64,000 nucleotides of DNA, taken from a virus (taxonomy: Duplodnaviria; Heunggongvirae; Uroviricota; Caudoviricetes). The stretch is taken from positions 80,253-144,252 of IMG/VR virus record IMGVR_UViG_3300013121_000049; one strand, written 5' to 3'. Both the position numbers and the translations under genes were made by a program. The notes beneath the pieces are model-generated. The model was not told the origin of the DNA. It worked only from the letters and a program-made list of their open reading frames with translations, and searched no databases. Shown here piece after piece: positions 10,748-57,117 of this stretch; position 1 is the first letter of the stretch; the number at the start of each line of letters is the position of its first letter.

Positions 10748-11263
10748 TCAGGCCGCCTTCACGATGTAATCGGTGTCGTTGAACTGGAAGCTGTTGGCGG
10801 TGAGCGCCATGCCCAGAACCTGGTGAATGGATCCGGTGCCTTGAGCACTGATCGGGGTAGCCGTCGCACCGCCCGGCGTGGTCGCCGACAGGTAGTAACG
10901 GGTGTCCGGGGTCAGGCCGGTCAGCGCGGTGTTCACGCCGTCAAAATATACCATGACGCCGGTCGCATTGGCGGCAGCCGATTGCAGGACGAAGCCTTCG
11001 GCGTAGTGGCCGCCGGCGGAAGCCACTGCGTTGGCAATCTTGCCATCACTGCGGATGTAGACGAAAGCGCCAGCCGCCAAGTTTTCGAAAGCCGTGCCCG
11101 TATAGGTGTCCGGGCCGATGCCGACCGGCATGAAGGACAGATCGAGACGACCGTTGGCGTCAAGGGCGGGGATGGCGCCGGCGCTGGAGATACCGGCGCT
11201 GGCAGTGATCGCCACGACTTCGGAGGTCTTGCCGTTGACGAGGGCGAGATAGGTAGTAGCCAT
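10748..11263 (-). CDS. hypothetical structural protein (171 aa), Ala/Gly/Thr-rich
   Basis: ORF in the structural operon. Confidence 0.55.
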   Translation of the reverse strand: MATTYLALVNGKTSEVVAITASAGISSAGAIPALDANGRLDLSFMPVGIGPDTYTGTAFENLAAGAFVYIRSDGKIANAVASAGGHYAEGFVLQSAAANATGVMVYFDGVNTALTGLTPDTRYYLSATTPGGATATPISAQGTGSIHQVLGMALTANSFQFNDTDYIVKAA

Positions 11264-14909: not shown

Positions 14910-16814
14910 TTAACCCCCGTTATGATGAGCTTCGTAGGTGCACTGCCAGTAGCAAGTATCGCCACCTGCAGCAGTTGTGTTTGCCATGCTGATGTCCAAC
15001 AAGCCGCTGGACACAGCAGGAGTAAAAGTAATCGTCTGCGTGTCAGGATTCCAGTCAGTACCTACAGTCTGCGTATCCAATGTCGCTGTCGTGCCATCCC
15101 AACGCACACAAACGCGGCGTTTTCCATACCACACCGCACCTGCGCTGGTTGTCATTGTCAGCAAGCATTCAAAAATACTAACCGCGTGATGTCCTGTGGG
15201 TTTCGTCAGATACGCAGGAAGTTTGGTATTGCTCGAAGTGACAAGCGAAGACGCAGCAGTACCAGTGGACGACCCTTTGAGCGAGCCGACGTAGCCTGTA
15301 ACCTTCGACGCGCTGTACGAAACACTGCTATTTCCAAACAGTGCAGCATCTTCCGGGCATAGCCCAGAAGAATTTATGAGTTTTCCAGACAATACAGCCT
15401 GATTACTTTTGTTCGCCTTATTTGATGTACCAGCCAGAATTGAAGATGTTGTGCCACCGGGATTTACATTCCCATTCGCCGTATTTATGGAGGGCAGTGA
15501 CTTATACGACACAAGATCTATGTTGTAGTCCGGCAGAGAAAGAGTCCTGTTAGCAGTGGCGTAGTTTGTGATTGCTGTGTACGCTCCTGGAACTCCAAGA
15601 TAAGGATTTGCCAGCACCCTGGCGAACGGAATTAAATACTGCGTATTTGGCGTCAGGTTAACCAAGTTCCATAGATTACCCGATGGGACATACGTATACA
15701 GGTATGTAAACCTTTCGCAACCGGGCACATTGCTACCAGTTATCTGCACAGTGGGTGCGACACTGTACAAGTCCGGCCCCATCACATTTTTAGTGCCTCC
15801 GTTCAGTGTTATGATCCCAACTCCGCTGCCGATACGAGAGTCTTTGTTTAGTGGAGTATCCTTAATAATCACCCAGTCGCCATCTGCTGGAGAGGCTGGC
15901 AAGTTGATAGTATACGAGGAAGTATCAGCGCTGCATTGATATACGCGCCCCGCCACAAGATTCAGCCCTGATGACGTAACAATACCTGCGGGGTCATACA
16001 ACGGCACATTAACTGTGCTGCCTCCGTAACCAAGAATTGCAAGATTGCCGCCGGACACTGTATACGTTAGCGGAATACTGCCAAGATTCACATCTTGGTT
16101 AGGCATAGTGATAGTACGTGCCGTTGCAGTGGAGATATTACCAAGACTCCACGCAATTTTCTTTGTGTTATCCGTACCATCAACTACCCGCCACACGTTT
16201 GATTTCGGCAAATCGCTGTACGCTTTAATTGCCTTCTGGCTGGGAACGCGTGTGTCACTGTTTGATGAAAGCGTCGTATCCGTATCGACGTTCGCCGCGT
16301 TGAACGGCGTGTAGCCGAGGTTCCCCTCGATCTGCGCCCAGTTGGCGGCCGTCTGTCCCGGCGCATCAGTCAGGGCCCGGATGGTGTCGCCGACATTCAC
16401 CGCGACGCCTCCCAACGTACCGGCGACGCTGATGTACCAGAGGTCGCCCTTCATGATGGCGCCGGCCGCGCCGCTGCCTCCGGAGGTCGGGTAGGTGTTC
16501 CCGCTGGCATTGTAGTTACCGCGATCCTTGACGACGCCGGAGATGGCCAGGCCAACCGTGGTTTGGACAAACGCCGTCGTGGATATCCGCGTCGAGTTGT
16601 CTCCCGTGGTCGGTGTCGGCGCCGTTGGGCTTCCTGTCAACGCCAGGTTATCCACGGACGCCACGTCAGAGAATTCAGAACCGCTTGGCGTTGACCCTTT
16701 GGGGATGCGCGTGGTCACCCGCTTCATCACGCCGCCATAGAGAACCAGCTCGTTGACCTCGTAGCCTTCCCCGGGCTGGTAAACCGTGATGAACCCGATC
16801 TTGGTCGTCTTCAT
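14910..16814 (-). CDS. tail-fibre-like protein (634 aa)
   Basis: Gly/Thr/Ser/Asn-rich ORF with a GAGGA ribosome-binding site. Confidence 0.65.
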   Translation of the reverse strand: MKTTKIGFITVYQPGEGYEVNELVLYGGVMKRVTTRIPKGSTPSGSEFSDVASVDNLALTGSPTAPTPTTGDNSTRISTTAFVQTTVGLAISGVVKDRGNYNASGNTYPTSGGSGAAGAIMKGDLWYISVAGTLGGVAVNVGDTIRALTDAPGQTAANWAQIEGNLGYTPFNAANVDTDTTLSSNSDTRVPSQKAIKAYSDLPKSNVWRVVDGTDNTKKIAWSLGNISTATARTITMPNQDVNLGSIPLTYTVSGGNLAILGYGGSTVNVPLYDPAGIVTSSGLNLVAGRVYQCSADTSSYTINLPASPADGDWVIIKDTPLNKDSRIGSGVGIITLNGGTKNVMGPDLYSVAPTVQITGSNVPGCERFTYLYTYVPSGNLWNLVNLTPNTQYLIPFARVLANPYLGVPGAYTAITNYATANRTLSLPDYNIDLVSYKSLPSINTANGNVNPGGTTSSILAGTSNKANKSNQAVLSGKLINSSGLCPEDAALFGNSSVSYSASKVTGYVGSLKGSSTGTAASSLVTSSNTKLPAYLTKPTGHHAVSIFECLLTMTTSAGAVWYGKRRVCVRWDGTTATLDTQTVGTDWNPDTQTITFTPAVSSGLLDISMANTTAAGGDTCYWQCTYEAHHNGG

Positions 16815-22992: not shown

Positions 22993-23001
22993 TGGTATAA
23001 G
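22993..23001 (+). promoter_or_regulatory. plus-strand copy of TGGTATAAG in a 28 nt gap between two minus-strand genes
   Basis: Exact motif, but it points into the antisense of gene 23004..23510. It may be coincidental or an antisense promoter. Confidence 0.2.
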
Positions 23002-26135: not shown

Positions 26136-29100
26136 TTACCCGAGAGGTCGGACCCCATTGCTGACATCCGCCGGCGCGCTCATGCCCGCCTGGCTCTGGT
26201 ACTCGAAGGTCGTCTTCGAAAGGAAGTCCTCGACGCCCTGCGGGTAGAACTCGCTGGGCGGCAGGATGTACGGCGCGCTCTTCGGGTCGCCCTCGGCGTG
26301 GTTGTGGCTGACCGACTCGCCCGAAGCCTGCTTGTGGTGACTGCCGATGACGACCTCCTGGTTCTCGTGGACCTTGCCGGCCTTGAGCGCCGCCACGGCT
26401 TCCGCCTCTGTGGCGAAGTGCACGGTCTTCTGCGTCTCGTCCTTGCTGGTCAGATGTACGCTGCCCAGGATGGCCTCGTGGCCGGGCGCAAACATCGAGT
26501 AGCCGTAGCCCTTGCGCACGTCGTTGATGTGGTGCATTGGCAGCAGCTTGGCCTTGGCCTCGGCGATGGCTTCCGGCGTCATCGGCAAGTGCATGGTCAT
26601 GGCGTCGCCGTCGAAGTCCGCGCCGAACGCCGGCAAGTGCAGCGGATTCAGGCCGATCGTGTTTTCCTTGGTCGGCACCGGATAGATGGCCAGCTCGTTA
26701 GTCCGCAGCAGGGTCGGCGCGCGGTTCAGCAGCAGCGGGATGTCCTTGATGCAGCGGTTGAACGCATAGGTCGCCAGGTTGTCGCGCTTGGTGTAGGAAT
26801 CCAACGCCTCGGGCATCGACATGCCCTGCTTCGCCAGGAAACGCAGGATGTGGTACTTGTAGAGCACCCACAGCTGGTCCACCGGGATGCGGGCCTCGTT
26901 GAAGCCGACATCCGGGGCAGCATAGATCGTCGCCCGTCCCGAGAAGTTCTGCTTGCGCGCCAGCAACCGGTCATGAAACACCCCGGTCTTCGGCCCGCCT
27001 TCCCCGGCGATCTGCTTGATGAACCCCTTCAGCGGCTTCTTGGCGCCGATGTTGTCGCCCAAACCCATGATGGCCGCTGCGCCCTGATAGAGGTCCTTGC
27101 GCATGGGCACCAGGGCATCCGGCGTCGAATCCGCGAGGTTCTTCTTCAGGGTCTTGCTGACCAAGATGTGATCGTTGTACAGGTTGTTGACGTCCGCGAA
27201 GTGCAGACTGCCGCCGCCCTGATCCATGAAGGGGCGCATGACCGGGGGCAGCACGGGCATGTGCTTGATGACGTAGGCGTCCGCCGGGTTGGAGAATCCG
27301 CTCTTCTGCAGGCCGCGCAGGTACTTGGCGCGCTTCACCTCGTCATCTCGCGCCGATACCGACTTCAGGTTGACGGCGTTGTGCACGGAGGTCTTCAGCG
27401 CCTCGTCGACATCGATGTTGGCCAGCAACTCCTTGAACGCCTCGCCGCCCACCTTGATCTTGTCGTCGTTGTAGGCTTCGTCGGCGTCCGCCTTCTTGGT
27501 CATGCCGACACCGGTCTTGCCGATGTGAATATCCCGGACCTTGGACTGGTTCAGCGTGTCGTAGAGGCCGTAGTGTCCCGGCGCAATCTTCTGCACGCCG
27601 TAAGAGCCGTCAGTCAGCCGATCGAACTCGTCCGCGCTCAGCTTGAGCACCGACTTCACGGGCATCTCGAAGGTAGGGTTCACGATGGGCTCGGCCAACG
27701 TGTAGTGCGACCACTTGGTGCCCTCCGGGCCGCCGGTAATGATGGGGTCGAACATGCCGCCTTTCTCAGGCTGCAGGGTGCGCGCCAACAGGCGGCCCTC
27801 GTTGACCTCGCCGCCGCTCATCTCCAGGATCTTGTGGTCGGTCAGCGGGGCCAGCGTCACTTTGTCGTTGGCCGTGCGCACATCGATGCCGGCGCCCTTC
27901 AGGTAGCCCAAGAACTTGTCGGTGGCAAAGGTCGTCTTCGGCTTGGGAAGCGGCTCGCCATTCTGGAAGGCCTTCCAGAACTCCTCGTTCTTCTCGGCCT
28001 TGATGGTCGACATCTCCTGCAGGTTCTTGCGGGCGTTGGACCCCAGCAAGGCCAGGAATTCCATGTAGGCCGTCCGCTTGGATCCCTCTTCCCCGCCCTT
28101 GGACGGCTGGCGCCAGGAGTCATAGCCACCCTCGACGTTGCGGGCGCTGTAATTGGAGTCCGTGGTCTTGTAGGTCTTGACCACGTAATGCGGGCCGCCG
28201 AAGACCTTGGGCAACACCTTGCCGGAGACCGGATCCACCAGCACGTCATGCTGCTTGAGCCCGTGCGCCTTCAGCTCGTCCTTGATCTTGCGGACAGAGT
28301 CCCCGGCGTTCTCATAGTTGTGGACCACATACTGCTTGCCCGTCTTCTGGGCAATGCGACCGGCCGCCGTCTCCAGGACCGATCCCAGGTTGATCCGGGA
28401 GGTGACCGAAGCCGGGTTGAAGATGGCGTCGACGGGTTTCCCCGTCTCCTGGTTATAGGGCATCTGCTCGTCCGGGACGATCTTGGAGACCACGCCCTTG
28501 TTGCCATGAAAGCCGGTCAGCTTGTCGCCTACCTCCAGGTGCTTCACCGAGCGCGTCAGGATGCGAACCTCCTTGCCATCGGTGTGGGCCTCGATGACCT
28601 CGCCGGGCTCCTCGTGCGTCCAGTACTCCACGACTGCCAGGTACGGGGAAACCAGCTGCTTGCTGATGCGGTGGTACATCAGGTCGGTCGTGCTCATCGT
28701 GCGCGGCTTGAGCACCGCCCAGATGGGATCGCCGTAGCGCAGGGTCTGGCCTTTCTGGATGAAGCCGCGACTGTCCAGCTTGGCCAGCTGGTCGGACTTC
28801 AGCAGGGACGGGAACGTCTTGCGGAACAGCGCCCGATCGGTCTTCATGTCCGTCGTCAGGGACAGGTCGTACTTGTAGGCGTGGTGGCTGGACAGCTTCT
28901 CGGCCGCGCCTTGGCTGACCACGATGCCGTCTTCATGGTTGAAGCCGTGGTACGGCATGAAAGCCACGTTCAGGTTGCGGCCCAGCGCCAGTTCCCCGCC
29001 GCGCGTGTAGTTGCTGTCGTACAGGGACTGCCCCTTCTCGACGCGATCGCCCACCTTGACCAGCGGGGCCTCATCATCGCGGAACCCCTTCTGGTTGTAT

Positions 29101-30905
29101 GGCAGGTTGACCACGCGGGCGACCTTGGCCGTCTTCCCGTCATCCCCGCGGATCTCCATCCCGGTGTCGGTGATCTTGCTCACCGTGCCGCTCACCGGGC
29201 TGATCGTGGTCATGATCTTCCCATAGACCTTGGTGAACGGGACCTCCCTGCCGTTCCGGTCACGGGTGGCCGTGGTTACCAGCGGCGCCTCGCGGTCCTT
29301 CAGGGAGAGCGCCTGGACGATGGCCTTGCCCGCCATGGTCAGACGACCCGGATGGTCGGCGTTCATGAACGGCACCAGGTTGGTGGTGACCGTGTACATG
29401 TCCGTCGGCTTCTCCACCCAGTACTGGACCTTGGACTCCGGGACGTTCTTCAGGACGCCGTGATCCTGGGCCTGCACCAAGCCGTTCTTCTTGCCGATCG
29501 TGAACCCGATGCAAGCGTTCATGATCTGGGACGCCGACAGGTAGACCGAGCGCCCCTTGGTGTCCTTGAACCGGCCGTAAAGGTTGCCCTTGGCGTCGCG
29601 CGCCGAGTTGATGGCAAAGCGCAAGTCGACGCCCACCGTGTCGGCTTCCGGCGTCCGGCTGGGATCCAGGATGGTCAGGTGGGACGGGTCAATGTTGCGC
29701 GTCCGGACGTTGTTGGCTTTCTGCAGATCGATGCCGCCTTCCCCCTCGCCCAGAACGGTGACCTTGGCCACGTTCTCCAGGGACTCGATGGGGTTGGTTT
29801 CCGACGGCACGATCGACAGCGTGGACTTGGTCAGGAAGTTCTGCATGACCTTGTTGTAGGGCTTGGAGACCACGACCTTGCGGATCTTCGGCGTCTCCTT
29901 GGACAAGACGGCGCGGTCCAGCCCCCACTTGATCTTGCGGCTGGCGTCGCTGACGTTCTCGTGTTCGCGGCCCTGTTCAAACCGCCGGGCAATCAGGTCC
30001 GGGTAGCTCACGACCCGCTTGAACTGCAGGGAGTCGCGGTTGTCTTCCTCGCGCTCGCCCTTGTGGATGGCGATGATGTTGGCGGCGATACGCAGCAGGG
30101 CATCGCCATCCAGATGCCCAAAGGACTTGCCCAGGGTGACCTTGGTGCCGTCTTCATCCAGGGTACGCTTCTCCAGCCCGACCTTGATCCACTTGATCTT
30201 CTCGGCTTGCGCGGGGTCCGGGTTGGCCTTGCGCTGCTCGTACGGAGCCACCTTGCGATACAGGCGGTTGGCGATGCCGTCGCTATCCCCGGACTCCATC
30301 AGATCCTTGTCCCAGATGGCCGTGGGAATGTAGGCGGACGCTTTCTGCCGGTCGATGCCGAAGACGTGGCTGAGCACCCAGACCAGCGGCACGTTGATGT
30401 CGCCGCTGCTCAGGATCAACGTCTGCTTGCGCGGGTCCAGGGACACTTCCAGGGAGCCGCCGCCGGAGTTGATCTGGGCCATGACAGCGCCGTTGCTGCG
30501 CCGACGATGGTAGACGCCCTCCTTGAGCTGCAGGAGGTGGGAGATGACGTAGTTGTTGCCCTTGTAGACGACCGTGTGCTTGTCCGTCAGGTGAAAGCAG
30601 TCGGCCAGGGCGTAGTTCTTCTCTTCGTCGACCGTCTTCCCCGTCTGCTTGTCGATGATGCGCAGGGTGCCGCGCACCGGGAACGTCAGGGACTTCGATT
30701 CCAGGATCGCCTTCTTTTCGTCTTCCTTGTCGAACGTCTTGCGATCGATCGTGATGTCCGAGACCTCGATACGGTAGCGGGCGTTCTCGATGGGGAACTG
30801 CTTGCGCACGCCATCCACGATGGCCTGGCAAACATCGTTCAGCGTGCTGTCCGGAGACGAGATCATGTGCTTCAGCGGCTTGCCGTCGAGACTGGTCAGG
30901 CTCAT
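26136..30905 (-). CDS. DNA-directed RNA polymerase: a complete beta-like subunit fused to the N-terminal half of beta-prime (through the NADFDGD catalytic region), 1589 aa
   Basis: Beta-subunit blocks: [12 protein letters not shown] (compare GYNFEDSILVSE), [25 protein letters not shown] (compare [25 protein letters not shown]), and LGEGEGGID...TPEADTVGV. Beta-prime blocks: [16 protein letters not shown] and [25 protein letters not shown]. The start is at the ATG that forms an ATGA overlap with the upstream stop; a GTG at 30914 is an alternative. Confidence 0.92.
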   Translation of the reverse strand: [1589 protein letters not shown]

Positions 30906-31330
30906 AGTTGCCACCCCTCACCCGGTTCCTCGTCTTTCTTCGGCGTCTCGAAGACCACGCCCTCGTAGGGCGCATCCTTCGGCTCCAGATACGTCAGGAC
31001 GACGATCATCTCGCCCTCCTTGTTGAAGGATTCCTTGCGGTCCACCAGGTAGATCCGCGTGGTCTCCGAGTGGATACAGGCGTCCAGCAGGCTCTCCAGC
31101 ATCAGTTCCTGCTCGGCAAACCCGGACAGCAGGAACCGCTTGACCCGGAGCTTGTAGTCGGCCAGTTTGAACCCGGCCCGGCCGGGAGCCTTGTCCTTTA
31201 CCGCGGCTTCCTCGTCAAGGTTGCGCAGGGTGACCCCCGGCATGGCTGCCGAATAGTCCTGCAGACCGACTCCCGCGTTCTCCGGAAGGTTGGGGGCATT
31301 GACCCCCGGCGTCTTGTCACGCGGCGGCAT
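30902..31330 (-). CDS. hypothetical acidic protein (142 aa), translationally coupled to the RNA polymerase gene
   Basis: ORF 30902..31381, trimmed to the Met after the GGAGGA ribosome-binding site. Its stop overlaps the RNA polymerase start. Confidence 0.5.
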   Translation of the reverse strand: MPPRDKTPGVNAPNLPENAGVGLQDYSAAMPGVTLRNLDEEAAVKDKAPGRAGFKLADYKLRVKRFLLSGFAEQELMLESLLDACIHSETTRIYLVDRKESFNKEGEMIVVLTYLEPKDAPYEGVVFETPKKDEEPGEGWQL

Positions 31331-41282: not shown

Positions 41283-41291
41283 GGGTATAAG
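41283..41291 (+). promoter_or_regulatory. promoter-like motif GGGTATAAG
   Basis: Lies directly after the terminator. It heads a 545 nt non-coding stretch before the ATG at 41834. Confidence 0.45.
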
Positions 41292-41812
41292 AAGCTAGAC
41301 ACCGAACTTTACCCCAGGCGGGGTACGGCGTGTCATGGCAAGGCCGGGCTCGGCACGGTCCGGCGGGGCTTGCAGAGGTTTGGCGAGGTGCGGCGTGGCA
41401 AGGACTTCTCACTGGGCTCGGCGAGTTCAGTGAGAAGTCCTTGAGGAAGGGTTTGGCTTGATCTGGTCAGGTTGGGCTGGGCGGGGTGTTGCTTGGAAAG
41501 GCAAGCCTGGGCTCGGCGAGGCAAGGCTAGGAGAGGCAAGGCGAGCCGGGGAATGGCAAAGCTTGGCAAGGCGTGGCAAGGCCCGGCATGGCGGGGCTCG
41601 GATAGGCACGGCATGGCTGGGTTAGGTACGGATTGGCATGGCGAGGGTTTCTCGCTGGGCTCGACGAGTTCAGCGAGAAACCCTTGGTGACTAGCACTAA
41701 TGATTATCTTCAATGGCGAGGTTCGGTCAGGTTTGGACAGGACGGGCTGGGTAAGGTAAGGCATGGCAAGGGCTTCGCCCGGAGCGGGAAACCACTCCGG
41801 GTTTTTCTTTTT
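41292..41812 (+). ncRNA. candidate structured non-coding RNA or long leader: GGCAAGGC/GGGCTCGGC-type short repeats, two covarying hairpins, and a 3' intrinsic terminator
   Basis: Hairpin 1, 41403-41439: GACTTCTCACTG-ggctcggcgagtt-CAGTGAGAAGTC. Hairpin 2, 41645-41683: GGGTTTCTCGCTG-ggctcgacgagtt-CAGCGAGAAACCC. The loops are near-identical and the stems differ but stay complementary. The terminator CCCGGAG...CTCCGGG plus TTTTTCTTTTT lies at 41778-41812. Confidence 0.4.
41778..41812 (+). terminator. intrinsic terminator or attenuator immediately upstream of the ribosome-binding site for gene 41834
   Basis: A 7 bp stem (CCCGGAG / CTCCGGG) followed by a T-tract. Confidence 0.6.
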
Positions 41813-43086: not shown

Positions 43087-43147
43087 CTGGCCCCCGGAGC
43101 CCGAGGATAACGAGGATGACTCGTTAGACCTCGATGTCGTGGGCTGA
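43070..43147 (+). CDS. small acidic peptide (25 aa) MQAHINWPPEPEDNEDDSLDLDVVG
   Basis: Paralogue of the 41179 peptide. It overlaps the end of gene 42451..43086 in another frame. It is also antisense to the last 24 nt of the sigma factor gene. A terminator follows. Confidence 0.3.
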   Translation: MQAHINWPPEPEDNEDDSLDLDVVG

Positions 43148-44032
43148 CTCAACGACGGCCTCCTCCGGGAGGCCTTTTTTTACATAGAATTGCCGGATCT
43201 TGCGCATGGCCGCAGTCTGCAGACGACGGACCTCGGACACCGTGCACCCCATATCCTGAGACAGCTGACTGATACTCTGCTTGGCCGCGCCGGCCAGCTC
43301 GAACATCGCCGAAATGACGCGCCACTCCCGAGAGGAAAGCATGGCCTGCAGGCGCCCGCACAAGAGGTCGTCATCCATGCTCTGGATGAGGTCATCTGAG
43401 AAGTCGGCCACCGTGAGGGGGGCCAGGGTAATGTCTGATCGCGCAACGGCGTCATCAATGTCGGCAGAGGAGTGGCGAGAGGAGTGTGAAGACAGGATGC
43501 CGCGGAGGATGTCATCGATGTAGACGGTGACGTACAGGGTCTTTCGCAAGTTGGCGATGATCTCCGTACTGGTGGATGGCGCGCACCGCTGCTGAAGCTC
43601 GACATCCGTGATCCTGGGTTCCTTGGCCAGGATGTCGCGTATCTTCACGGCAAGCTGCTGCTGCCACACGGGGAGCTTGACCAGCCTGAGCTTCTGCTGC
43701 GTCCGCCACTGGCACTGGTTTACCCACCACCCGGCGTAGGTCAGGAACTTGTGCCCGCGCTTGTAGTCGAACCGCGACAGGGCGATACACAGACCTTCGT
43801 TCCCCGCCGCCACCAGTTCTTCGAACTCATAGGCACCCAGTTTACGAGCACGCAGCTTGGCCTGCTTGGCGACAAACATGATGCACGACCGGACGATCTT
43901 GTCGCGGGCCGCATCCTTTTTCCAGCGCGGCGCTTCCGGATCCTCCAGTGTGGCGAACAGAGACTGCTCCTCCTCCCGGCTCAAGGGCTTTTGTTTTGAA
44001 ACCAGGGTGAAATAGGAGGATATTGGATCCAC
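43124..44032 (-). CDS. sigma-70 family RNA polymerase sigma factor (302 aa)
   Basis: Region 2: IMFVAKQAKLRARKLGAYEFEELVAAGNEGLCIALSRFDYKRGHKFLTYAGWWVNQCQWRT, which has the FSTYATWWIRQAI-type pattern. Region 4: SSREWRVISAMFELAGAAKQSISQLSQDMGCTVSEVRRLQTAAMRKIR. The start is a GTG with a weak ribosome-binding site, so it is uncertain. Confidence 0.85.
   Translation of the reverse strand: MDPISSYFTLVSKQKPLSREEEQSLFATLEDPEAPRWKKDAARDKIVRSCIMFVAKQAKLRARKLGAYEFEELVAAGNEGLCIALSRFDYKRGHKFLTYAGWWVNQCQWRTQQKLRLVKLPVWQQQLAVKIRDILAKEPRITDVELQQRCAPSTSTEIIANLRKTLYVTVYIDDILRGILSSHSSRHSSADIDDAVARSDITLAPLTVADFSDDLIQSMDDDLLCGRLQAMLSSREWRVISAMFELAGAAKQSISQLSQDMGCTVSEVRRLQTAAMRKIRQFYVKKGLPEEAVVESAHDIEV
43157..43181 (+). 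terminator. intrinsic terminator (GGCCTCC-tccg-GGAGGCC followed by TTTTTTT), located inside the 3' coding region of the convergent sigma gene
   Basis: A 7 bp stem followed by a T7 tract. On the opposite strand the same bases encode ...KKGLPEEAVV of the sigma factor. Confidence 0.65.
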
Positions 44033-47522: not shown

Positions 47523-48425
47523 GTGGAAGACCTGAAAAAAGAGATCGTGCGGCGCGTCTCGGAGCCGCGAATACTGGTCATGGACGCCCCGCGAACCGGC
47601 CCGTGGTCAAACTCCAGCCTGAAAATGCTGGAAAAGTGCCCGATGTTCTGGTTCCTGGAAAAGGTCCTGAAGATACAGGCGCCCCGGGACCCGTCCTCAC
47701 AGACGTCCTACCTGAATGCACTGGGAAAGGCCGCGCACTACCTGCTGGAGCTTCGCCTGTCGGGGAGCAGCAAGCCCCGGGCGCTTCGTTTGGTGGAAGA
47801 GCAGTACCGCCTCTTGCTGCCGGACACCTGGTGGATAGCGTTCCATGACTTGATCCCCAACGTGGAATCCCTGCTCCTGAGGATCCACGACTTCATGCGC
47901 AAGGTCGTCGTCACCGACATCCTTGTCGAAACGAAGCTGGCATTCACCCATGACAAAAAAGCGGTGGAATTTGACGATCCCAGGGCTTTCTTCCGAGGCA
48001 TCATTGACCTTACCATCATGGTGGCTGACGGCCGAAGCATCATCATCGAACACAAGACCGGGGTTCCGGCGAGGTCATCCCTCGTCCCCTTCAACCGCCA
48101 GCTGGAAGGATGCTCTTCCCTGCTCCTGCTCGGCATGAATCCCGAGATCAAGGGAGTGCAGCCGTACTTGCATCACATCAAGGACGGCGTCGTCAGGAAG
48201 GGGCGGTATCTGCCGCGGCGCACCTTGACCGACAGAATCATTCCAGAGCTATATCACGACGTCAGCGACGCGCTGGCTCGTGTCCGCACGGAAGCGGTAT
48301 TTGATACCCGACGGGCCGGCAACACCCTGTGCCAGTACTGTCCTTACAACAACATTTGCAAAGGCCGAAACTCCTTCCTCAAGAGAGAGATCGTGCCGCT
48401 GACAGGAGCTTTCCTCCATGAGTAA
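47523..48425 (+). CDS. Cas4/RecB-like PD-(D/E)xK nuclease with a 4Fe-4S cluster
   Basis: Motif II GIIDLTI. Motif III IIEHKTG. A QPY motif. An N-terminal Cys (EKCPMFWF) plus C-terminal CQYCPYNNIC. GTG start after a GAGG motif. Confidence 0.75.
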   Translation: MEDLKKEIVRRVSEPRILVMDAPRTGPWSNSSLKMLEKCPMFWFLEKVLKIQAPRDPSSQTSYLNALGKAAHYLLELRLSGSSKPRALRLVEEQYRLLLPDTWWIAFHDLIPNVESLLLRIHDFMRKVVVTDILVETKLAFTHDKKAVEFDDPRAFFRGIIDLTIMVADGRSIIIEHKTGVPARSSLVPFNRQLEGCSSLLLLGMNPEIKGVQPYLHHIKDGVVRKGRYLPRRTLTDRIIPELYHDVSDALARVRTEAVFDTRRAGNTLCQYCPYNNICKGRNSFLKREIVPLTGAFLHE

Positions 48426-49308
48426 TCCGCCCCTCCGCACGCATGCCGCCCTTCTGGCCGGTCACGTCCCCAACCCTGAACTGGGCAACCTGCCCTCCCT
48501 CTCCCAGGATTACCTGGAAGAAGAACGCCGCAAGATCGAAGACTACGAGAAAATGGTCAAGCGCATGGGCGGCAAAGACCTCTCGCTGTCTTGCCTGCAC
48601 ATCGCCGCAATGGCCGGCTGGCGCCAGCGCTTCCAGACCGTGGTCGCCGGGGAGGATTGGGCCGGGAAAGGGCTTTGGCTGAACTTTGCCGCCGACACGG
48701 AATACGCGGAACTCCTGCAAGAACTGGGCATGGTGTGGTGTCACTGGAAGCGCTGCAACGAGCCGCACAATCCCCGGGTGATGATCGAGCTGGTGGACCT
48801 GGCCAGCGTCTTCTTCGACAAAATCCTTCAGGACCTCGGCGTTGAGGAATTTCAACCCAACATGCACCCGGACAGCCTGTCGACCAAGTTGGCTGACCTG
48901 GTCAACGCCACCTGGAGCCGCCACTTTGACTTCCTCGCGGAAGAAGGCATCCACGCCTCTGAAGAAACCACAGTCCTTTGCGCTTACCTGACTGAACTCA
49001 GGGAGTGCGTGGCGTCGATGAACCCGATCGAAGGCCTGGGCGTCATCGGTGCAATCCTCGCCATCCTCGGGCTGAACCCCCTGGACCTGTACGGATGGTT
49101 TCTGGGGAAGCAAATCCTCAACCTGTTCCGCCAGGAGCACGGTTACATGGAGGGTACCTACGTCAAGACCTGGGAAAACCGGGAAGACAACGAGCACCTC
49201 GCCACCCTTCTGCAACTCGCCCGGCAAGACGATTACAAGCAATTGCCGGCCAACGATGGCGCGGCGCTGCGTGACAATCTGAGCCGGATCTACCCCAACG
49301 CGGAGTGA
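48418..49308 (+). CDS. hypothetical protein (296 aa)
   Basis: ORF with a GGAG ribosome-binding site. It overlaps the upstream gene by 8 nt. Confidence 0.55.
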   Translation: MSNPPLRTHAALLAGHVPNPELGNLPSLSQDYLEEERRKIEDYEKMVKRMGGKDLSLSCLHIAAMAGWRQRFQTVVAGEDWAGKGLWLNFAADTEYAELLQELGMVWCHWKRCNEPHNPRVMIELVDLASVFFDKILQDLGVEEFQPNMHPDSLSTKLADLVNATWSRHFDFLAEEGIHASEETTVLCAYLTELRECVASMNPIEGLGVIGAILAILGLNPLDLYGWFLGKQILNLFRQEHGYMEGTYVKTWENREDNEHLATLLQLARQDDYKQLPANDGAALRDNLSRIYPNAE

Positions 49309-49314
49309 TCCCCC

Positions 49315-52236
49315 ATGAGCATGTTCCAGATCCTCAAGCGCGAAGTCCCCTTGCGCCAGGGGATCGAGCATTACACCGGGGCCAAGCTGACTTCCTGTGG
49401 AAGTCGTAACAGTCAACTCGAAGACACCTCCTGCCCGTTCTGCGGGCACAACGACTGCTTCAAGTGCCTCAGCGACGAGGATCAGGATATCCTCGTCCAC
49501 TTCCGATGCTATTCCTGCGGCCGGCAGGGCTCGGATACCGTGGCCTTCTACATGGAGCTGCACAACGCGAAGCCGGAGAACCGGGCAAAGAGCATCGAAG
49601 CCATCTATGCCGCCAAGCAGGTAGCCAAAGACTTCGATGTCCCCTGGCAAGACTTCGCCGCCGTGCAGCAAGAGATTCTCGACGTCACCGCCCGGTTCTA
49701 TCACTACTGCCTGACCGGGAACAGCGACCGGATCATCGTGGACGGCTACGACAACCTCAACCCGCTGAAGTACCAGACGGAGTACCGGAAGCACTCCTTG
49801 GAAGCGCTGGATGAGTTCGAGGTCGGGTGGGCGACCAAGTCCAATAGCCTGCAGGACTACCTGGAGGGGCTGGGCTACTCGGTAGAGGATTGCATCTCCG
49901 CCGGCGTCCTGGTTGAGCACAAGGACGAGAAGACCAAGAAGACGAAGGTAAACCCGCTGTTCTGGCCGGGGGTGTTCATCTATCCGCACTTCGTCGACGG
50001 AAAGGTCAGCCATTTCACCCAGAAAAGCCCGGACCCCCTGAAGCCATCCAAGCACCAGATGAAGGCCGAGCATTCCCGCAACGGCTACATGGTGTATGGT
50101 CAGGATGACGTCAAGCATGCCCGTCAGGTGTTCGTCGTTGAAGGGGAGAACGACCGGATATCCCTGTGGGAGCACCTGAAGGGGAAGGCCGCGGTCATCG
50201 CCCTGATCGGTCAACCCTCGAAGAAGCAATGCGACTGGATCGCCGCCAACCTCCGGGACAAGGACGTCTACACCATCTTCGACAATGACGACGCCGGGGA
50301 CAAATACCGGACGGTGTTCCAGGGGCTCAGCCTGGCTCGCCTGAAGCAGTTCAAGGTTCCGGGAAAATGGAAAGACATCGATGAGTACCTGAAGAAGGAT
50401 CCCGCTGCGGAACTGGAGCGTCTTGTCCCTGCCGTCATCAAGCTGGATACCGAAAACGCCCGTACCCCGGAAGACGGCAAGGACGGCACCGGCAGCTTGC
50501 GCGGCGTGTTCGAGGAGGGCAACTGCTACTACCGCCTCAGCATCGACCGGAAGGGAAACGCCGAGCCCGTCAAGGTCAGCAACTTCACCATGCGCCTGCA
50601 ACGGGTCTACGTCTACGAAAAGGACGACACCCGTGAACGCGAGGTCATCATCGTCAAGGAAGATGGCACGGAGGCCCCGGTCCCCTTGCTGGTCGATTCC
50701 CTGGTGAAGACCCGGCTGCAGGACTTCCGCAAAGCCATCGCAGACGTCGCCGACGTCGCGTTCTACGGAGGCGATCAGGACCTGCATGCGGTGTGGGACG
50801 CCGTGTACAACAAGCAGGAGGGGAAAGTCATCCGGGTGCCCATGGAGATAGGCCACCAGTACAACGGCGGATGGGTGTTCCGCGACTGCTACATCGACCC
50901 CAAGGGAGAGGTTTTCCCGGCAACCCGCGACGGGCTGATCCCGGTCCATGACGAATACCTGTTCCCCATGGGTGTCACCATCCAGACCAACGCCCGACGC
51001 AAGCACAGGCAACGTCACGGTATCCCCTCCCTGATCATCCCCTACGACAAGACGGAGGCCGAGCACGAAGCCTTCTTCCAGGAGTTCTGCCACCACTTCA
51101 TCCGGAACATCGGCGACGTTGGCATGGCTGTCTGCATGCTGGCCTGGGCCAAGGCCTGCGCCTTCAGCCACCAGGTCTTTGAGCACTATCGGTTCTTCCC
51201 GTTCCTCTACCTGTGGGGCCGGTTCGGCAAAGGCAAATCCACGGTGTCCTACTGGCTGCTCAACCTGTACGGAATGCGCGGCATCAGCGAAAACAGCCTG
51301 TCCCGCCTGGAGAGCGGCGTCGGCTTCAATCGCATGATGGCGACCTACAGTTCCCTGCCCGTCCTGCTGGAGGAGATGCGGGCAAACAAGGAAGCGTCCG
51401 ACCTACACGGCACCATCCGCTCCTGGTACAACCGGGTGCCCCGCCCCATGGGCGACCGCCGCGACGCCTCCGTGATCGTCAGCCAGCCCGTCCGCGCCTG
51501 CCTGATGTTCAACGGGGAGGACGTGCTGACCGACCCGGCGGCGCGATCACGGTGCATCGAGTTCCAGTTCCCCCCGGAGGAGAAGCGGGACCTGGATGTC
51601 TCCTACACCTGGATTGAAGGCCACGCGGAAGAACTGCCGTCCATCGGTCTCCGCTGGATCCGGGAGAGCCTCACCACGGACTACGAGGCGCTGTTTGCCG
51701 ACATGAAGCGGGTGGAACGCATGCTGCTGGCCGGGGCGACCAAGGACCGCCGCGTCGCCCAGCAGTGGAGCCTGATCGGCGTATTCGCAGACCATCTGTT
51801 CTCCGACCTGGGCCTGGACCCCGTCCAGTACAGTCTGGAGGCTTTCCTGATCGCCGCCTGCAAGGGGAGGTCGGAGGACATCCGCGAGGAGAACATCGTC
51901 ACCCAGTTCTTCCAGATGGTGGAGGGTATCCAGGTACAGAAAAACTCGCCGATCATGGTTGGCGAGCACTTGCGTGTCGCCGGGGACCAGATATTCCTGT
52001 GGGTGCCCGAGCTCTGGCAGATTTGCCAGCGCGAACGCGAAGCCCTCCGGAACAGCGCCACCACGTTCTCCTCGAAGGCCCTGCTCAATAGCCTGAGGGG
52101 GGAGCCCTACTACCAGGACACGGCGGCTCGCAAGATGGGGATGTCCGGCACCAACCGGAAAGTCGTCATTCTGCGCCTGGAAGAGGGTATTCCTGACAGT
52201 TTGAAGGCCATCGCGGCCCTCGCCGAAGCCGAGTAG
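49315..52236 (+). CDS. DNA primase fused to a helicase: Zn-binding domain, TOPRIM domain, and a C-terminal P-loop NTPase
   Basis: CHC2-type Zn finger (SCPFCGHNDCFKC...CYSCGRQG). TOPRIM acidic motifs (VFVVEGENDRISL, TIFDNDDAGDKY). Walker A GRFGKGKST. Confidence 0.88.
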   Translation: MSMFQILKREVPLRQGIEHYTGAKLTSCGSRNSQLEDTSCPFCGHNDCFKCLSDEDQDILVHFRCYSCGRQGSDTVAFYMELHNAKPENRAKSIEAIYAAKQVAKDFDVPWQDFAAVQQEILDVTARFYHYCLTGNSDRIIVDGYDNLNPLKYQTEYRKHSLEALDEFEVGWATKSNSLQDYLEGLGYSVEDCISAGVLVEHKDEKTKKTKVNPLFWPGVFIYPHFVDGKVSHFTQKSPDPLKPSKHQMKAEHSRNGYMVYGQDDVKHARQVFVVEGENDRISLWEHLKGKAAVIALIGQPSKKQCDWIAANLRDKDVYTIFDNDDAGDKYRTVFQGLSLARLKQFKVPGKWKDIDEYLKKDPAAELERLVPAVIKLDTENARTPEDGKDGTGSLRGVFEEGNCYYRLSIDRKGNAEPVKVSNFTMRLQRVYVYEKDDTREREVIIVKEDGTEAPVPLLVDSLVKTRLQDFRKAIADVADVAFYGGDQDLHAVWDAVYNKQEGKVIRVPMEIGHQYNGGWVFRDCYIDPKGEVFPATRDGLIPVHDEYLFPMGVTIQTNARRKHRQRHGIPSLIIPYDKTEAEHEAFFQEFCHHFIRNIGDVGMAVCMLAWAKACAFSHQVFEHYRFFPFLYLWGRFGKGKSTVSYWLLNLYGMRGISENSLSRLESGVGFNRMMATYSSLPVLLEEMRANKEASDLHGTIRSWYNRVPRPMGDRRDASVIVSQPVRACLMFNGEDVLTDPAARSRCIEFQFPPEEKRDLDVSYTWIEGHAEELPSIGLRWIRESLTTDYEALFADMKRVERMLLAGATKDRRVAQQWSLIGVFADHLFSDLGLDPVQYSLEAFLIAACKGRSEDIREENIVTQFFQMVEGIQVQKNSPIMVGEHLRVAGDQIFLWVPELWQICQREREALRNSATTFSSKALLNSLRGEPYYQDTAARKMGMSGTNRKVVILRLEEGIPDSLKAIAALAEAE

Positions 52237-52620
52237 CCGTTTCGGCTACCTCCGGCTACCTAACTGCTACTTCGCGTTTATCTTCAAGTAGCCGGGCAAA
52301 CCGTTGCGCCCCAACGGTTTCAGCTCTCCGGCTACCTCGGCTACCTCGGCTACCAAAAAAGTATGACGTCATATATACGTACATGTGCGCGTACGGTATT
52401 GACCGCCTAGTCACAGAAAAGTGTTGACATTCTCGTTTTCACTTGATCTAGGATTGTAGGACAATATATATCTCTTATATATATATAGTCTTTTTCAGAA
52501 AGTAGGTAGTAGAGGTAGCCCAAACGCTGAATCCCTTGCGCCCCAAAGATTTGCTCGGCTACCAAAAGGTAAAAACGAAGTAGCAATTAGGTAGCCGAGG
52601 TAGCCCGGCCTCGGGTATAA
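52237..52620. repeat. putative replication origin: GGCTACC iterons (direct and inverted, at least ten copies) flanking an AT-rich core at 52462-52486, plus palindromes TGACGTCA and TAGCCGtttCGGCTA
   Basis: CGGCTACCTCCGGCTACC at 52246. CCGGCTACCTCGGCTACCTCGGCTACC at 52327. GGTAGTAGAGGTAGCC at 52503. GGTAGCCGAGGTAGCC at 52589. Core AATATATATCTCTTATATATATATAG. A duplicated TTGCGCCCCAA. Lies immediately downstream of the primase-helicase gene. Confidence 0.55.
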
Positions 52621-52621
52621 G
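52613..52621 (+). promoter_or_regulatory. promoter-like motif GGGTATAAG
   Basis: Lies 20 nt upstream of the ATG at 52641, which has an AGGAGG ribosome-binding site. Confidence 0.45.
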
Positions 52622-52640
52622 AACGACAGGAGGCATCCTT

Positions 52641-53549
52641 ATGACTGAAACCGTTTACACCACCCCCTCCGGCCGCTTCCGGGTCGACGCTGAGCTGGAT
52701 GACGACGCCGAGAACCCCTGGAAAGACTGCGATACCGGCTTCGAATACCACTTCGAGGCCGGTCGATACATCAGCGACATCAGCAAAGACTTCCCCATGG
52801 ACTGCCACCCAGGCGGCCCGCGCTTCAAGGCCGGCCATCCGGACTACTGGTGGTACCCCGTGTACGCGTACATCCACAGCGGCATCACGGTCTCCCTGTC
52901 TCCGTTCTCCTGCCGCTGGGACTCCGGCGTCCTGGGGTGGGTGGCCGTCAAAAGGCCAAGCCGTGGCGGCGAGTGGCGCCGTCAAAAGGACTTCCTCAAG
53001 TACCTTCAGGGAATGATCGATGTTTACGACGACTACCTCACCGGCAACGTCTACGGATACCTTGTGGTCGATACGAAGACCGGGGACGAACTGGACTCCT
53101 GCTGGGGGTACTACGGAAACGACCACGAAAAGTCCGGGCTGCTGGAAGCAGGAAAAGCCCAGGCTGACTACTACGAATCCCAACTGGAGATCTGCATGAA
53201 CACTCGCCCCGTCCACGACAAGGACACCCTTTACCCCTTCTTCTGGGTCACCGCTGTCGTCCAGATAGAAGAGCCCGACTCGCCCGGCAAGTTCTACTAC
53301 CGCGACGCCGAGACCGATGATGACGCCACGCATTTCGGCGTCTACCGCTACAACCCGCCGGGCGCCGACGGCATCAGCGTTTGCGACCACATCTGTGACT
53401 GCCCTACCCGGCCGGTCGCCGAGCGGATCCGGGACACACTGGACCTGCTGCGCAACAGCATCAACGGTATCCTGCCCTGGCTCCCCGAAGAGACCGAGGC
53501 CAAGCGCAAGAATGCGCTGTCTCTTTACCAGACCGGGGATAAGTCATGA
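52641..53549 (+). CDS. hypothetical protein (302 aa), Trp/Tyr/Asp-rich
   Basis: ORF with a strong ribosome-binding site. It is the first gene after the origin-like region. Confidence 0.6.
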   Translation: MTETVYTTPSGRFRVDAELDDDAENPWKDCDTGFEYHFEAGRYISDISKDFPMDCHPGGPRFKAGHPDYWWYPVYAYIHSGITVSLSPFSCRWDSGVLGWVAVKRPSRGGEWRRQKDFLKYLQGMIDVYDDYLTGNVYGYLVVDTKTGDELDSCWGYYGNDHEKSGLLEAGKAQADYYESQLEICMNTRPVHDKDTLYPFFWVTAVVQIEEPDSPGKFYYRDAETDDDATHFGVYRYNPPGADGISVCDHICDCPTRPVAERIRDTLDLLRNSINGILPWLPEETEAKRKNALSLYQTGDKS

Positions 53550-54976: not shown

Positions 54977-55228
54977 ATGCTGACACGTCATGGCTTTGAA
55001 TATTCGCTGCGGTCCACGCAGCGATTCATTGCCGACATGACAAGGACCGGCATGCTGGTTGTCCACCCGGAGGACCCGCAGCCATCGGAACACATGCGGC
55101 GCGGCCTCAACCCCGACCATCCGGTTGTCCGGGCGTGGGTGACCGGCGAACCGGTGCCCTACCCGACGTTCAAACAATCCGTTTCCCTGAGCCGCGGCCC
55201 GCGGCTCCCTCTTCAGGTGAATCCATGA
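54977..55228 (+). CDS. small hypothetical protein (about 83 aa; possible HTH); start uncertain (a TTG at 54917 is an alternative)
   Basis: ORF 54803..55228. Its upstream part overlaps the previous gene. Its stop forms an ATGA overlap with the GHKL gene. Confidence 0.3.
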   Translation: MLTRHGFEYSLRSTQRFIADMTRTGMLVVHPEDPQPSEHMRRGLNPDHPVVRAWVTGEPVPYPTFKQSVSLSRGPRLPLQVNP

Positions 55229-57117
55229 GCAACATCTCCATGCAGGTCTCCACGTCCAAGCTGATGCAGAGCCTGACCTATGCCTTCAACTCCCCGCGGT
55301 CTGTGCTCGGCGAGCTCCTGCAAAACTCCCGCCGGGCAAAAGCGAAAAACATCGTGCTGACCGTCGAGATGACCTTCTTGCGGCCGGATGGCGAACCTCT
55401 GGTAGTCACGCTGGGCCGCGATGAATGGGACGCTGTTTCCAGCGACTTCATGAACGCCGCGTACACCAGCCATGTTCGTCGAGATCTGAAGAACACCACC
55501 CTGACCTCATTGAGCTTCGAGGTCTGCGACGACGGCTGCGGCATCGACGACTTCCAGAAGCTCTTCTGCCTGGCCGACTCCGGCTGGTCGGACGACGTGA
55601 TGGAGGCGGAAGGCCCCTACGGCCTGGGGTTCTTCTCGGCTATCGTCAGCGCACCGCGTATCCTGTTGTCCAGCCGGGGCATTCGCCTGGACGTCAACTC
55701 CGCCGCGCTCATCTCCGGCAATGGCGTCGCCATTACGGAGACGCACACAGAGGACACGGGGAAGACGGTTGTCCGCCTTGAGGGAATTGATGCCTCCCGG
55801 ATGATCTCCGGTAACCTCACGGTGGACTCCTACGCCTACTCCAAGATGTGCTACGCCAATCTGGTCGAATACATCCAGAAGCTGGTCCAGGCGTTCCCTG
55901 TCCCGGTCCGCCTCCCCGACGGCTACCGCATCCAGTCTCCCTTTGCGGATATCCCCGGACGCCACGGTGTCGCCCTGCCCTGCGGCAGTCGAGCTATTTT
56001 CGGCCGCCCGGTAACAGGTCTCACTGCGTTCCGCAAGCCCGAGCAGGAAGCTGAGTTCTGGAAGCGGTACGTTCGCTATGCCGGCTCAATGTCCACCAGC
56101 GTGATGTACAGCCTGCAGAGCTTGCCTATTGAGGTATCCACCACCGGCATGCTGCCATCGCACGGCAGCCGGTCCCGTCGGTACTACCACGCCATGGTGC
56201 ATCTCAACTCTCGCAGCTACCGGGGCCGCCTGCCGGACCGCAGCCACATTTACGGCGAAGACGAACGCAGTGCGGACCTCACGGCTATTCGGGAGGACCT
56301 TTACGGCATGGTGGCGAAGCGGCGGATTGACCGCGAAGCCCCGCAGTTTGGCGACAACGTCTGGGCAGACGCCGCCATCCGCTGGTTGATGCCCATCTTT
56401 TCGGGCAGGTCCGTAGTGCACGGAATGGTGCCCATGATCGAGATGGTTCCGTCGTCTATCTGCATGGGACCGCGCTTGGGGTCACCCCATCGTTTTCAAG
56501 GCAGCGATACCCTGGCCAAGACAATGGATCTGGCCAGACTGCTCGGGGCAAGCCGCCAAATCCTCTGCCGGGACATGCTGTCGTCCGACGGAAGCTGCCC
56601 CTTGACCACCCCGGAAACCATGGTGCTGGTCGCGTCGTTTTCTTACGTAGTGGACACTGTATTCACCGAGGTTTACCCGGAAGTCCCTGTGACCACGGTA
56701 TCCTCTGTGGTAGAAGAGACAAGGGCTATCGTCAACCGAATTCAAGACCGCAAAGACGAGGCTCCGATTGTCATTCGCGCAGGTCTCCCGGAGTTCGTTT
56801 TTCACGAAGACCCGGTCCCCGCCATGTTCATCATCGGTAACCGCGCGTATCTTCCGAAACGACCGGGGATCACCCAGGAAGTTGCCGGCAAGCGATTGGC
56901 GCATATCCACCGGACGTCCTCTTACCCGAGCGCTCACCTCAAGGAGTTTGTGGCGGCGGCCTTGAAAGGCATGGGCCTGGACGAGGGGTTCCTGCTCAAG
57001 GAGTTCCGTGACAACCTCAACGATGACAGCGAGTTTCGCCAGCTGATTTCCGGCGGGGCTTTTACCCTCACCTTTGATGACAAGGGAGAACTGACGTATG
57101 TCGCAAGAGTACGGTAG
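55225..57117 (+). CDS. MutL-like GHKL-family ATPase (630 aa)
   Basis: N-box ELLQNSRRAKAK (compare MutL ELVENSLDAGAT; the Asp is replaced by Arg). G1 box VCDDGCGID (compare DNGCGI). G2 box PYGLGFFSAIVSA (compare GFRGEALASIS). Its size matches MutL. Confidence 0.7.
   Translation: MSNISMQVSTSKLMQSLTYAFNSPRSVLGELLQNSRRAKAKNIVLTVEMTFLRPDGEPLVVTLGRDEWDAVSSDFMNAAYTSHVRRDLKNTTLTSLSFEVCDDGCGIDDFQKLFCLADSGWSDDVMEAEGPYGLGFFSAIVSAPRILLSSRGIRLDVNSAALISGNGVAITETHTEDTGKTVVRLEGIDASRMISGNLTVDSYAYSKMCYANLVEYIQKLVQAFPVPVRLPDGYRIQSPFADIPGRHGVALPCGSRAIFGRPVTGLTAFRKPEQEAEFWKRYVRYAGSMSTSVMYSLQSLPIEVSTTGMLPSHGSRSRRYYHAMVHLNSRSYRGRLPDRSHIYGEDERSADLTAIREDLYGMVAKRRIDREAPQFGDNVWADAAIRWLMPIFSGRSVVHGMVPMIEMVPSSICMGPRLGSPHRFQGSDTLAKTMDLARLLGASRQILCRDMLSSDGSCPLTTPETMVLVASFSYVVDTVFTEVYPEVPVTTVSSVVEETRAIVNRIQDRKDEAPIVIRAGLPEFVFHEDPVPAMFIIGNRAYLPKRPGITQEVAGKRLAHIHRTSSYPSAHLKEFVAAALKGMGLDEGFLLKEFRDNLNDDSEFRQLISGGAFTLTFDDKGELTYVARVR

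Follow-up and report, generated by a model that had tools for sequence, protein, structure and literature searches.

What could a short intergenic gap, crowded with copies of one heptamer and lying directly behind a primase-helicase gene, do for a large tailed phage? We addressed this question in a 64-kb stretch of phage DNA of ~60% GC (positions 80,253–144,252 of the IMG/VR record IMGVR_UViG_3300013121_000049), hereafter the window, whose numbering is used unless another sequence is named. The gap, 404 nucleotides (nt) at 52237–52640, runs from the stop codon of one plus-strand open reading frame (ORF; 49315–52236), here called pri-rep, to the ATG of the next (52641–53549), which confirms the noncoding gap of ~400 nt described in an earlier note made from the sequence alone. 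That note took the combination of iterons and an unwinding element beside a primase-helicase gene for a replication origin. Our analysis points the same way: with a probability of roughly 0.75, the gap is a replication origin of the phage, or one of several, of the type known from Staphylococcus aureus pathogenicity islands (SaPI), beside a gene for a DnaG-type primase fused to a Rep-like helicase. The support is comparative and structural, and the origin reading is strengthened because a fold-level homologue of the initiator-helicases Rep and Cch adjoins the gap, because the layout is kept in relatives, and because the core is the easiest DNA to melt.

Iterons, arms, and core of the gap

The heptamer GGCTACC occurs 25 times in exact form in the window, nine times inside the gap and 16 times across the other 63.6 kb. 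At this background rate 0.10 exact copies would be expected in the gap against the nine observed (Poisson, P ~3e-15), and in 1000 dinucleotide-preserving shuffles of the gap no 7-mer of any kind exceeded five copies. Six copies lie on the plus strand (52244, 52254, 52330, 52339, 52348, and 52557) and three on the minus strand (52514, 52590, and 52599), bearing out the direct and inverted orientation seen earlier; the accompanying figure of at least ten copies is too high for exact matches, and holds once the near-copies AGTAGCC at 52232 and 52287 are counted (11 at ≤1 mismatch). The first near-copy (52232–52238) overlaps the TAG stop codon of pri-rep (52234–52236). Sites with the CTAC/GTAG core number 17, evenly split with eight to the left and eight to the right of the AT-rich core and one GTAG (52456) within the center. 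The iteron unit measures 7–9 nt: Tandem Repeats Finder reports a perfect 9-bp array of 2.9 copies of CGGCTACCT at 52329–52354 (100% match), and the GGTAGCC copies at 52590 and 52599 form a tandem at the same 9-bp spacing. At a larger scale the gap is a long imperfect palindrome, whose 94-nt arms (52253–52346 and 52504–52597) are 78% complementary across a spacer of 157 nt. The left inner array and the right inner set are 88% complementary, and the outer pair at 52590/52599 matches 52330–52346 with 100% complementarity over 17 nt. Folded as single-stranded DNA, the region reaches −83.1 kcal/mol, compared with −41.2 ± 3.8 kcal/mol for shuffled sequence (z = −11). The duplicated element and the two palindromes that had been picked out by eye are likewise present, TTGCGCCCCAA at 52304 and 52536 with no third copy in the window, TGACGTCA at 52364, and TAGCCGTTTCGGCTA at 52234. 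The gap is single-copy within the window; it has no nucleotide match by blastn among 50,697 phage and 72,556 plasmid records or the fetched loci, and megablast with the 3 kb surrounding it gave no match either.

The A/T element (52463–52488) had been described as 25 nt of pure A/T with the repeats arranged symmetrically around it. It is not pure, since CTC separates runs of 9 and 13 nt (88% A/T). The symmetry itself stands, in the form of the 94-nt arms, whereas the central place of the element does not: it adjoins the right arm, separated by ~15 nt from the inner repeats on the right and by ~110 nt from those on the left. GC content in the gap falls to a minimum of 27%, and its lowest 40-mer, at 52461, has 17.5% GC. 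The least stable 40-mer of the window starts at 52464 (−39.2 kcal/mol; mean −61.3, SD 3.7) and the least stable 100-mer at 52417 (−114.4 kcal/mol; mean −153.3, SD 6.4), both about 6 SD away from the window average. Nowhere else in the 64 kb should the duplex open as readily as in the core of the gap. A further candidate core element, CGTACGC, was dropped; the window, L009, and L102 have it, and seven other origin-like regions lack it. Several of the next least stable segments of the window fall in 15000–16800, a stretch of ~49% GC within a 60% GC genome that overlaps a 634-aa minus-strand ORF (14910–16814) and may represent a recently acquired gene.

A predicted initiator-helicase and the layout in relatives

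Which protein might act on such a site? The N-terminal ~375 residues of the pri-rep product contain a zinc ribbon and a Toprim domain (Pfam Toprim_2), and a family profile of this part matches PDB 2au3 (E 3e-17). The remaining ~600 residues carry a Walker A motif (GKGKT) and, at the C terminus, a winged helix; no Pfam profile matches them even with the E cutoff raised to 10. Residues 371–973 were modeled with AlphaFold2 from 47 homologues (mean pLDDT 88), and with this model Foldseek retrieved SaPIbov1 Rep (PDB 8tch) at E 8e-13 (TM 0.55/0.66). Judged by this model, the C-terminal 600 residues are a fold-level homologue of the self-loading initiator-helicases SaPIbov1 Rep and Cch of the staphylococcal cassette chromosome mec (SCCmec). 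SaPI Rep loads itself and reads iterons of 5–6 nt with its C-terminal winged helix; its origin, directly downstream of the rep ORF, has six to twelve iterons around an AT-rich center, half of them on each side and at least two per side opposed, and two hexamers are thought to load, one per side, with binding and melting being ATP-independent (PMC9371898; PMC7581432). The window repeats this arrangement: immediately 3′ of a gene for a predicted self-loading initiator-helicase with a C-terminal winged helix, nine exact iterons (11 at ≤1 mismatch) stand on both sides of an AT-rich region near the center, off-center and nearer the right set, and at least two per side are opposed (52329–52354 on the plus strand, 52502–52520 on the minus strand).

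The comparison with relatives carries further weight. Around the pri-rep homologues of phages sharing 29–51% protein identity (table 1), opposed repeat sets flank an AT-rich stretch in every case, and the repeat differs by relative. Inverted arms and spacers measure 94/157 nt in the window, 67/151 in L009, 87/146 in L016, 30/86 in L001, and 62/208 in Vibrio phage D69, such that the arms stand ~150 nt apart in three of these five genomes. The right-hand neighbor gene varies, and in L009, L016, and D69, where the region lies 0.6–2.8 kb downstream, one to four genes separate it from pri-rep; the region is therefore conserved independently of that neighbor. A constant layout with changing repeat sequence is to be expected if an origin and its initiator evolve together; a mobile element should show the reverse. 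The complete D69 genome (186,708 bp; OZ195729.1) is instructive. No other site in this genome scores as high for close inverted 12-mers as the region beside pri-rep (~125,060–125,400), where the 100-mer ranking second in instability is also found. A paralogous region, inverted and 58 kb away (~67,350–67,690), shares all three repeat types and contains the fifth least stable 100-mer. Three tiny ORFs annotated as hypothetical proteins (VPHD69_0230–0232) overlap the first region and are probably spurious. In Salmonella phage Arash a less convincing candidate lies at ~100,130–100,370 of OQ632216.1, where GTTACA repeats surround an AT-rich stretch.

Between outer and inner repeats, one on each side, the window, L001, and L009 carry palindromes of the form CCnTTG-N5-CAAnGG, here termed E elements; L006 has a single copy. 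The left E is the sole zero-mismatch match in the window, and in ~1.05 Mb of fetched DNA such matches are confined to the origin-like regions of the window, L001, and L009. The right E of the window aligns with the right E of L001, L006, and L009. Because the E sequence is kept while the iterons differ, a conserved factor or a structural role is likely, as far as sequence comparison can tell. The E arms do not show clean co-variation, and in more distant relatives another GC-rich palindrome occupies this position, for example AAACCCAGGCGGGGCCTGGGTTT in D69. E elements have the A-run, hairpin, and T-run shape of a terminator; yet an intrinsic terminator scan of 51800–53000 called no site, and they are not supported as standard terminators.

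Taken together, we infer that the pri-rep protein binds these repeats, melts the core, loads itself, primes, and starts replication here. The winged helix would hold hexamers on the GGCTACC iterons, with one assembly to the left and one to the right of the center and the two inner arrays of three 9-bp units opposing each other; the AT-rich core (~52461–52500) would then melt, helicase rings would load themselves on the single strands without a separate loader and unwind outwards, and the tethered primase domain would supply the phage DNA polymerase, whose gene lies a few kb downstream, with its first primers.

More distant phages that match only the primase part show 8–13 short repeats in low-GC noncoding DNA within a few kb (table 1), among them TGCTAC, TGCACC, ACCTAC, GGGTTGA, GGGTGCA, and GGTGCAA; in two of these loci, L060 and L073, the layout is common to both but the repeat sequences differ. 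Near pri-rep the window also encodes a MazG/dUTPase_2-like protein (48418–49308) and a GHKL-ATPase-like protein (55135–57117), and genes after pri-rep in the relatives include an Nmad5-like protein and thymidylate synthase (window 52641–53549, L009 7951–8715, Arash gp180–182). This gene set presumably hints at a thymidine hypermodification pathway in the clade.

Table 1. Features of the gap and its surroundings, and the corresponding regions in related phages (for relatives, position is given relative to the pri-rep homologue)
Feature	Position	Strand	Details
pri-rep gene, 973 aa	49315–52236	+	residues ~1–375, predicted DnaG-type primase; ~395–973, predicted Rep/Cch-like MCM-type AAA+ initiator-helicase; C-terminal domain ~885–973
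Left outer iterons	52232–52293	mixed	AGTAGCC 52232 (−), GGCTACC 52244 (+), GGCTACC 52254 (+), TGCTACT 52265 (+, degenerate), AGTAGCC 52287 (−)
Palindrome TAGCCGtttCGGCTA	52234–52248		within left outer iterons
Left E element AAACCGTTGCGCCCCAACGGTTT, 23 nt	52298–52320	+	CCnTTG-N5-CAAnGG palindrome; 9-bp perfect arms in this copy
Left inner iterons	52329–52354	+	three head-to-tail CGGCTACCT, 9-bp spacing, facing center
Center, 147 nt	52355–52501		between inner iteron sets; holds TGACGTCA 52364–52371, TTGACA 52424
Candidate unwinding element, AT-rich	~52461–52500		in center; minus-strand TATAAG motif (CTCTTATA at 52473)
Right inner iterons GTAGGTAGTAGAGGTAGCC	52502–52520	−	one exact GGTAGCC and 2–3 degenerate units, facing center
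Right E element AATCCCTTGCGCCCCAAAGATTT	52530–52552	+	one mismatch; spacer oriented as in left copy
Right outer iterons	52557–52605	mixed	GGCTACC 52557 (+), AGTAGCA 52579 (−, degenerate), GGTAGCC 52590 (−) and 52599 (−)
Promoter-like GGTATAAG	52614–52621	+	with ribosome-binding site AGGAGG 52628–52633 of downstream gene
(T/G)GGTATAAG promoter-like motifs	7973, 22994, 25334, 35444, 40683, 41284, 44719, 46392, 52614, 63418	+	
L001	directly after gene, ~440-nt gap		51% protein identity; core CTAC, 9-bp spacing
L006	directly after gene, ~480-nt gap		49% protein identity; TAACGTCA
L009	2.8 kb downstream, four genes between		41% protein identity; TGACAAAAC
L016, L028	2.1–2.5 kb downstream		31–34% protein identity; TTGGACA
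L003	directly after gene		29% protein identity; GTGTCTTA
Vibrio phage D69 (cultured)	0.65 kb downstream		29% protein identity; TGCTACAT, GTTACA, TTGCAAC
Distant primase-only loci	L060 11830–12140, L073 3700–4040, L056 10470–10760; L081, L087, L004/L068/L082, L072/L079/L090		

Weighing the proposed origin against other functions

Several observations weigh against an origin served by the pri-rep protein. Cumulative GC skew has no inflection at the gap in the window, nor at the corresponding region in the complete D69 genome, where it tracks gene orientation and reaches its minimum at a strand switch at 141 kb; skew is thus not informative on the origin here. The Rep/Cch homology is visible at fold level only and not in the sequence: Pfam DUF927 (PF06048) finds no match in pri-rep at E up to 10, and among the 47 family members it matches one (E 1.3e-3). 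Sliding identity along the primase-Rep protein reveals no hypervariable DNA-binding domain, the variable stretches being linkers only. The recognition-helix region differs among relatives with different iterons and is similar in the three users of TTGGACA; yet D69 shares the GCTAC core with the window while its recognition helix differs, and no clear helix-iteron rule emerges. A scan of viral contigs for GGCTACCTCGGCTACC retrieved an unrelated small phage contig (L098, IMG/VR 3300037070_007539; L102, IMG/VR 3300037071_008574) that carries a terminase gene and three sets of three CGGCTACCT/GGTAGCCG units in inverted arrangement (L098 8790–9010, L102 1300–1625). No Rep homologue was seen near these arrays, and the 107-aa protein beside those of L098 has no similarity to pri-rep and no Pfam match. 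The CGGCTACCT repeat may therefore not be specific to the pri-rep protein and may be read by something other than a Rep domain; alternatively, such short iterons may recur by convergence. Finally, PMC9371898 and PMC7581432 do not list E elements, long arms, or a promoter-like core motif among the features of SaPI origins.

The main rival to an origin is a transcriptional control region, in which the repeats would be operators of a phage regulator, as in a parC/ParR array or in timing operator clusters. One point in its favor is the GGTATAAG motif at the right edge of the gap. The window holds nine exact copies and one GGTATAAA, against 0.33 expected; all ten are on the plus strand (table 1), and most of them, in the contexts printed, have an ATG within the next ~60 nt. 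The same motif stands ahead of genes in Salmonella phage Arash and in L016, and at the sequence level it is conserved across the clade. Given these plus-strand copies, the ATGs that follow, and the same pattern in Arash and L016, the copy at 52614 is best taken as an ordinary member of the promoter family serving the downstream gene. The promoter-type motif noticed earlier is thus real, whereas the transcriptional activation of the origin proposed for it does not follow; promoter and ribosome-binding site (52614–52633) belong to the next transcription unit and not necessarily to the origin. The operator reading could also draw on TATAAG-like motifs, which are frequent in the AT-rich cores of relatives and found in those of the window (on the minus strand), L001, L005, L028, Arash, and L040, and on the canonical TGGTATAAG in the center of L009. 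All ten bona fide promoters, however, have an invariant GG that is missing from the window core motif, and a leftward promoter would have no gene to express. Scans of 51800–53000 for sigma-70 promoters and intrinsic terminators returned no site. The downstream gene is not conserved while the region is, and the layout matches a proven origin type beside a fold-level homologue of its initiator. We consider operators unlikely.

Some further observations concern transcription in this phage. The motif at 22994 lies between two minus-strand virion genes, with no obvious plus-strand ORF after it. Three minus-strand ORFs (26136–30914, 5444–7267, and 43124–44032) are assigned by PHROGs to beta-type subunits of a multisubunit RNA polymerase and a sigma factor; by such annotation, the phage probably transcribes part of its genome with its own RNA polymerase. 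At 41284–41700 a terminator hairpin and a GGTATAAG promoter (41284) are followed by ~330 nt of ~60 pentanucleotide units of the form GGNNN/GGCNN (e.g. GGCAA GGCGT GGCAA GGCCC). A hairpin with a 13-bp stem occurs there twice, after the first block of units (~41399–41437) and at the end of the stretch (~41636–41674), as GGACTTCTCACTG...CAGTGAGAAGTCC and GGGTTTCTCGCTG...CAGCGAGAAACCC, and the copies differ by compensatory changes. Rfam has no match to this stretch, which may be a noncoding RNA or a second cis element. Rfam likewise returned no hit for the gap (E up to 1) or, at gathering thresholds, for the whole window, and a search for tRNA and tmRNA genes was negative.

Could the region instead be a packaging (pac) site or genome terminus, with small terminase bound to repeats around a cleavage region? 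Repeats flanking a central region recall the pac site of phage P1; in the unrelated contig L098, a terminase gene and CGGCTACCT arrays lie ~1 kb apart; and two Logan contigs, from independent short-read assemblies of the L009 phage, break off within its counterpart of the gap (L010 and L011, at locus positions 10827 and 10816). These ends coincide with a perfect inverted repeat, read by eye as ~36 nt in L009, where the tool gives 67-nt arms at 85% complementarity. As the repeat is longer than the k-mer assumed for the assembly (~31), an assembly break is the simpler reading of the contig ends. Seven assemblies continue without a break across the region, namely the complete genomes of D69 and Arash, the window contig, L001, L006, L009, and L016. 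The D69 terminase gene, at position 1, lies at least ~60 kb from both copies, and none of the large window ORFs that were tested proved to be a terminase. Packaging is accordingly very unlikely. As for the assemblies, origins of this type may systematically fragment those of metagenomic phages.

No better are the prospects of a partition site, that is, a centromere bound by a ParB- or ParR-type protein, and like a transposon remnant it has little support. Centromere-like sites do typically have clusters of short repeats in both orientations; against this, no partition gene is found among the annotated neighbors, the virion, multisubunit RNA polymerase, and replication genes suggest a lytic life style, and an extreme AT-rich core between opposed repeats after an initiator-helicase gene fits an origin better. 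Least credible is a decayed miniature transposable element with terminal inverted repeats, the outcome that the earlier note had named as fatal to its proposal: imperfect 94-nt inverted arms do flank a 157-nt core, but the gap is single-copy and matches no phage or plasmid record or fetched locus, and in relatives the layout stays 0–2.8 kb 3′ of pri-rep with unrelated repeat sequences.

Significance and comparison with known systems

Experimentally known replication origins exist for very few large phages; we found no described origin for this clade in the literature, and the paper on its cultured member Arash mentions none. A replication origin in the gap supplies the clade with a concrete candidate origin and initiator, and reassigns the function of a 600-aa domain without any Pfam profile. 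It also suggests a rule for finding origins in metagenomic phages, namely opposed short repeats around the least stable DNA, 0–3 kb 3′ of a primase-Rep gene. Varying repeats on a constant layout form a natural data set for changes in the DNA specificity of winged helices, and a defined origin with a one-protein initiator, helicase, and primase would be a compact replicon module for engineering. More tentatively, and at odds below even, the gap might be the type example of an unannotated class of origins in a large clade of 140–200 kb phages that includes Arash and the Vibrio phages D69, D148, and D181; the pri-rep family comprises 212 database proteins at E ≤1e-30, labeled only "DNA primase" or "RNase M5". 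Such a class would possibly be more elaborate than the SaPI origins, with paired palindromes, arms ~150 nt apart, TATAAG in the unwinding element, and, in at least one genome, two inverted copies 58 kb apart. If true, these extra features would suggest that a fused DnaG-primase/MCM-like self-loading helicase initiates replication at two sites or in a manner coupled to transcription.

How does the locus compare with systems already described? The closest likeness is to SaPI, as represented by SaPIbov1 Rep. In both, the origin lies directly 3′ of the initiator gene, about ten short iterons in opposed orientation are split by an AT-rich center, and the (here predicted) initiator belongs to the MCM-related AAA+ helicases and has a winged helix at its C terminus. 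The primase belongs to the same module: in SaPI its gene precedes rep, and in SaPI5 the two are fused (PMC9371898; PMC7581432), as in pri-rep. The differences are equally plain. SaPI are 15-kb satellites, whereas the window, part of a 144,252-bp JGI contig, belongs to a phage of at least 144 kb with its own RNA polymerase subunits and sigma factor. The pri-rep primase is of DnaG type, while those of SaPIbov1 and SaPI5 are of the archaeo-eukaryotic primase type (PMC7581432). The window iteron has 7–9 nt instead of 5–6, pri-rep lacks detectable sequence similarity to Rep, some relatives have the region 0.6–2.8 kb from the gene, and D69 has two copies.

SCCmec Cch (DUF927, PDB 5dgk), also an MCM-like helicase, differs in having no primase fusion; no iteron origin is described for it in PMC9371898 and PMC7581432, and the DUF927 profile misses pri-rep. 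Kazlauskas et al. had already noted uncharacterized DUF927-type helicases fused to primases in phages (PMC4889955). Classical iteron-plasmid and DnaA-dependent origins have direct repeats of ~17–22 bp, DnaA boxes, and in many cases IHF sites; the gap instead has 7–9-bp units inverted between its sides, and neither a DnaA box (TTATCCACA) at ≤1 mismatch nor an IHF consensus occurs in it. In phage P4 the iterons of ori (TGTTCACC) stand in both orientations, and a second cis site, crr, has the same iterons as ori, reminiscent of the two copies in D69. The P4 α protein resembles pri-rep in combining a DnaG-type primase, a hexameric AAA+ helicase, and an origin-binding C-terminal winged helix in one polypeptide (PMC4889955). 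As a purely functional analogy, the layout may also be likened to the origins of SV40 and other polyomaviruses and of papillomaviruses, where inverted short elements flank an AT-rich stretch and two hexamers of an initiator-helicase (large T antigen or E1) act, and to archaeal oriC, where inverted ORB elements, the sites of Orc1/Cdc6, flank the AT-rich stretch on which the helicase loads.

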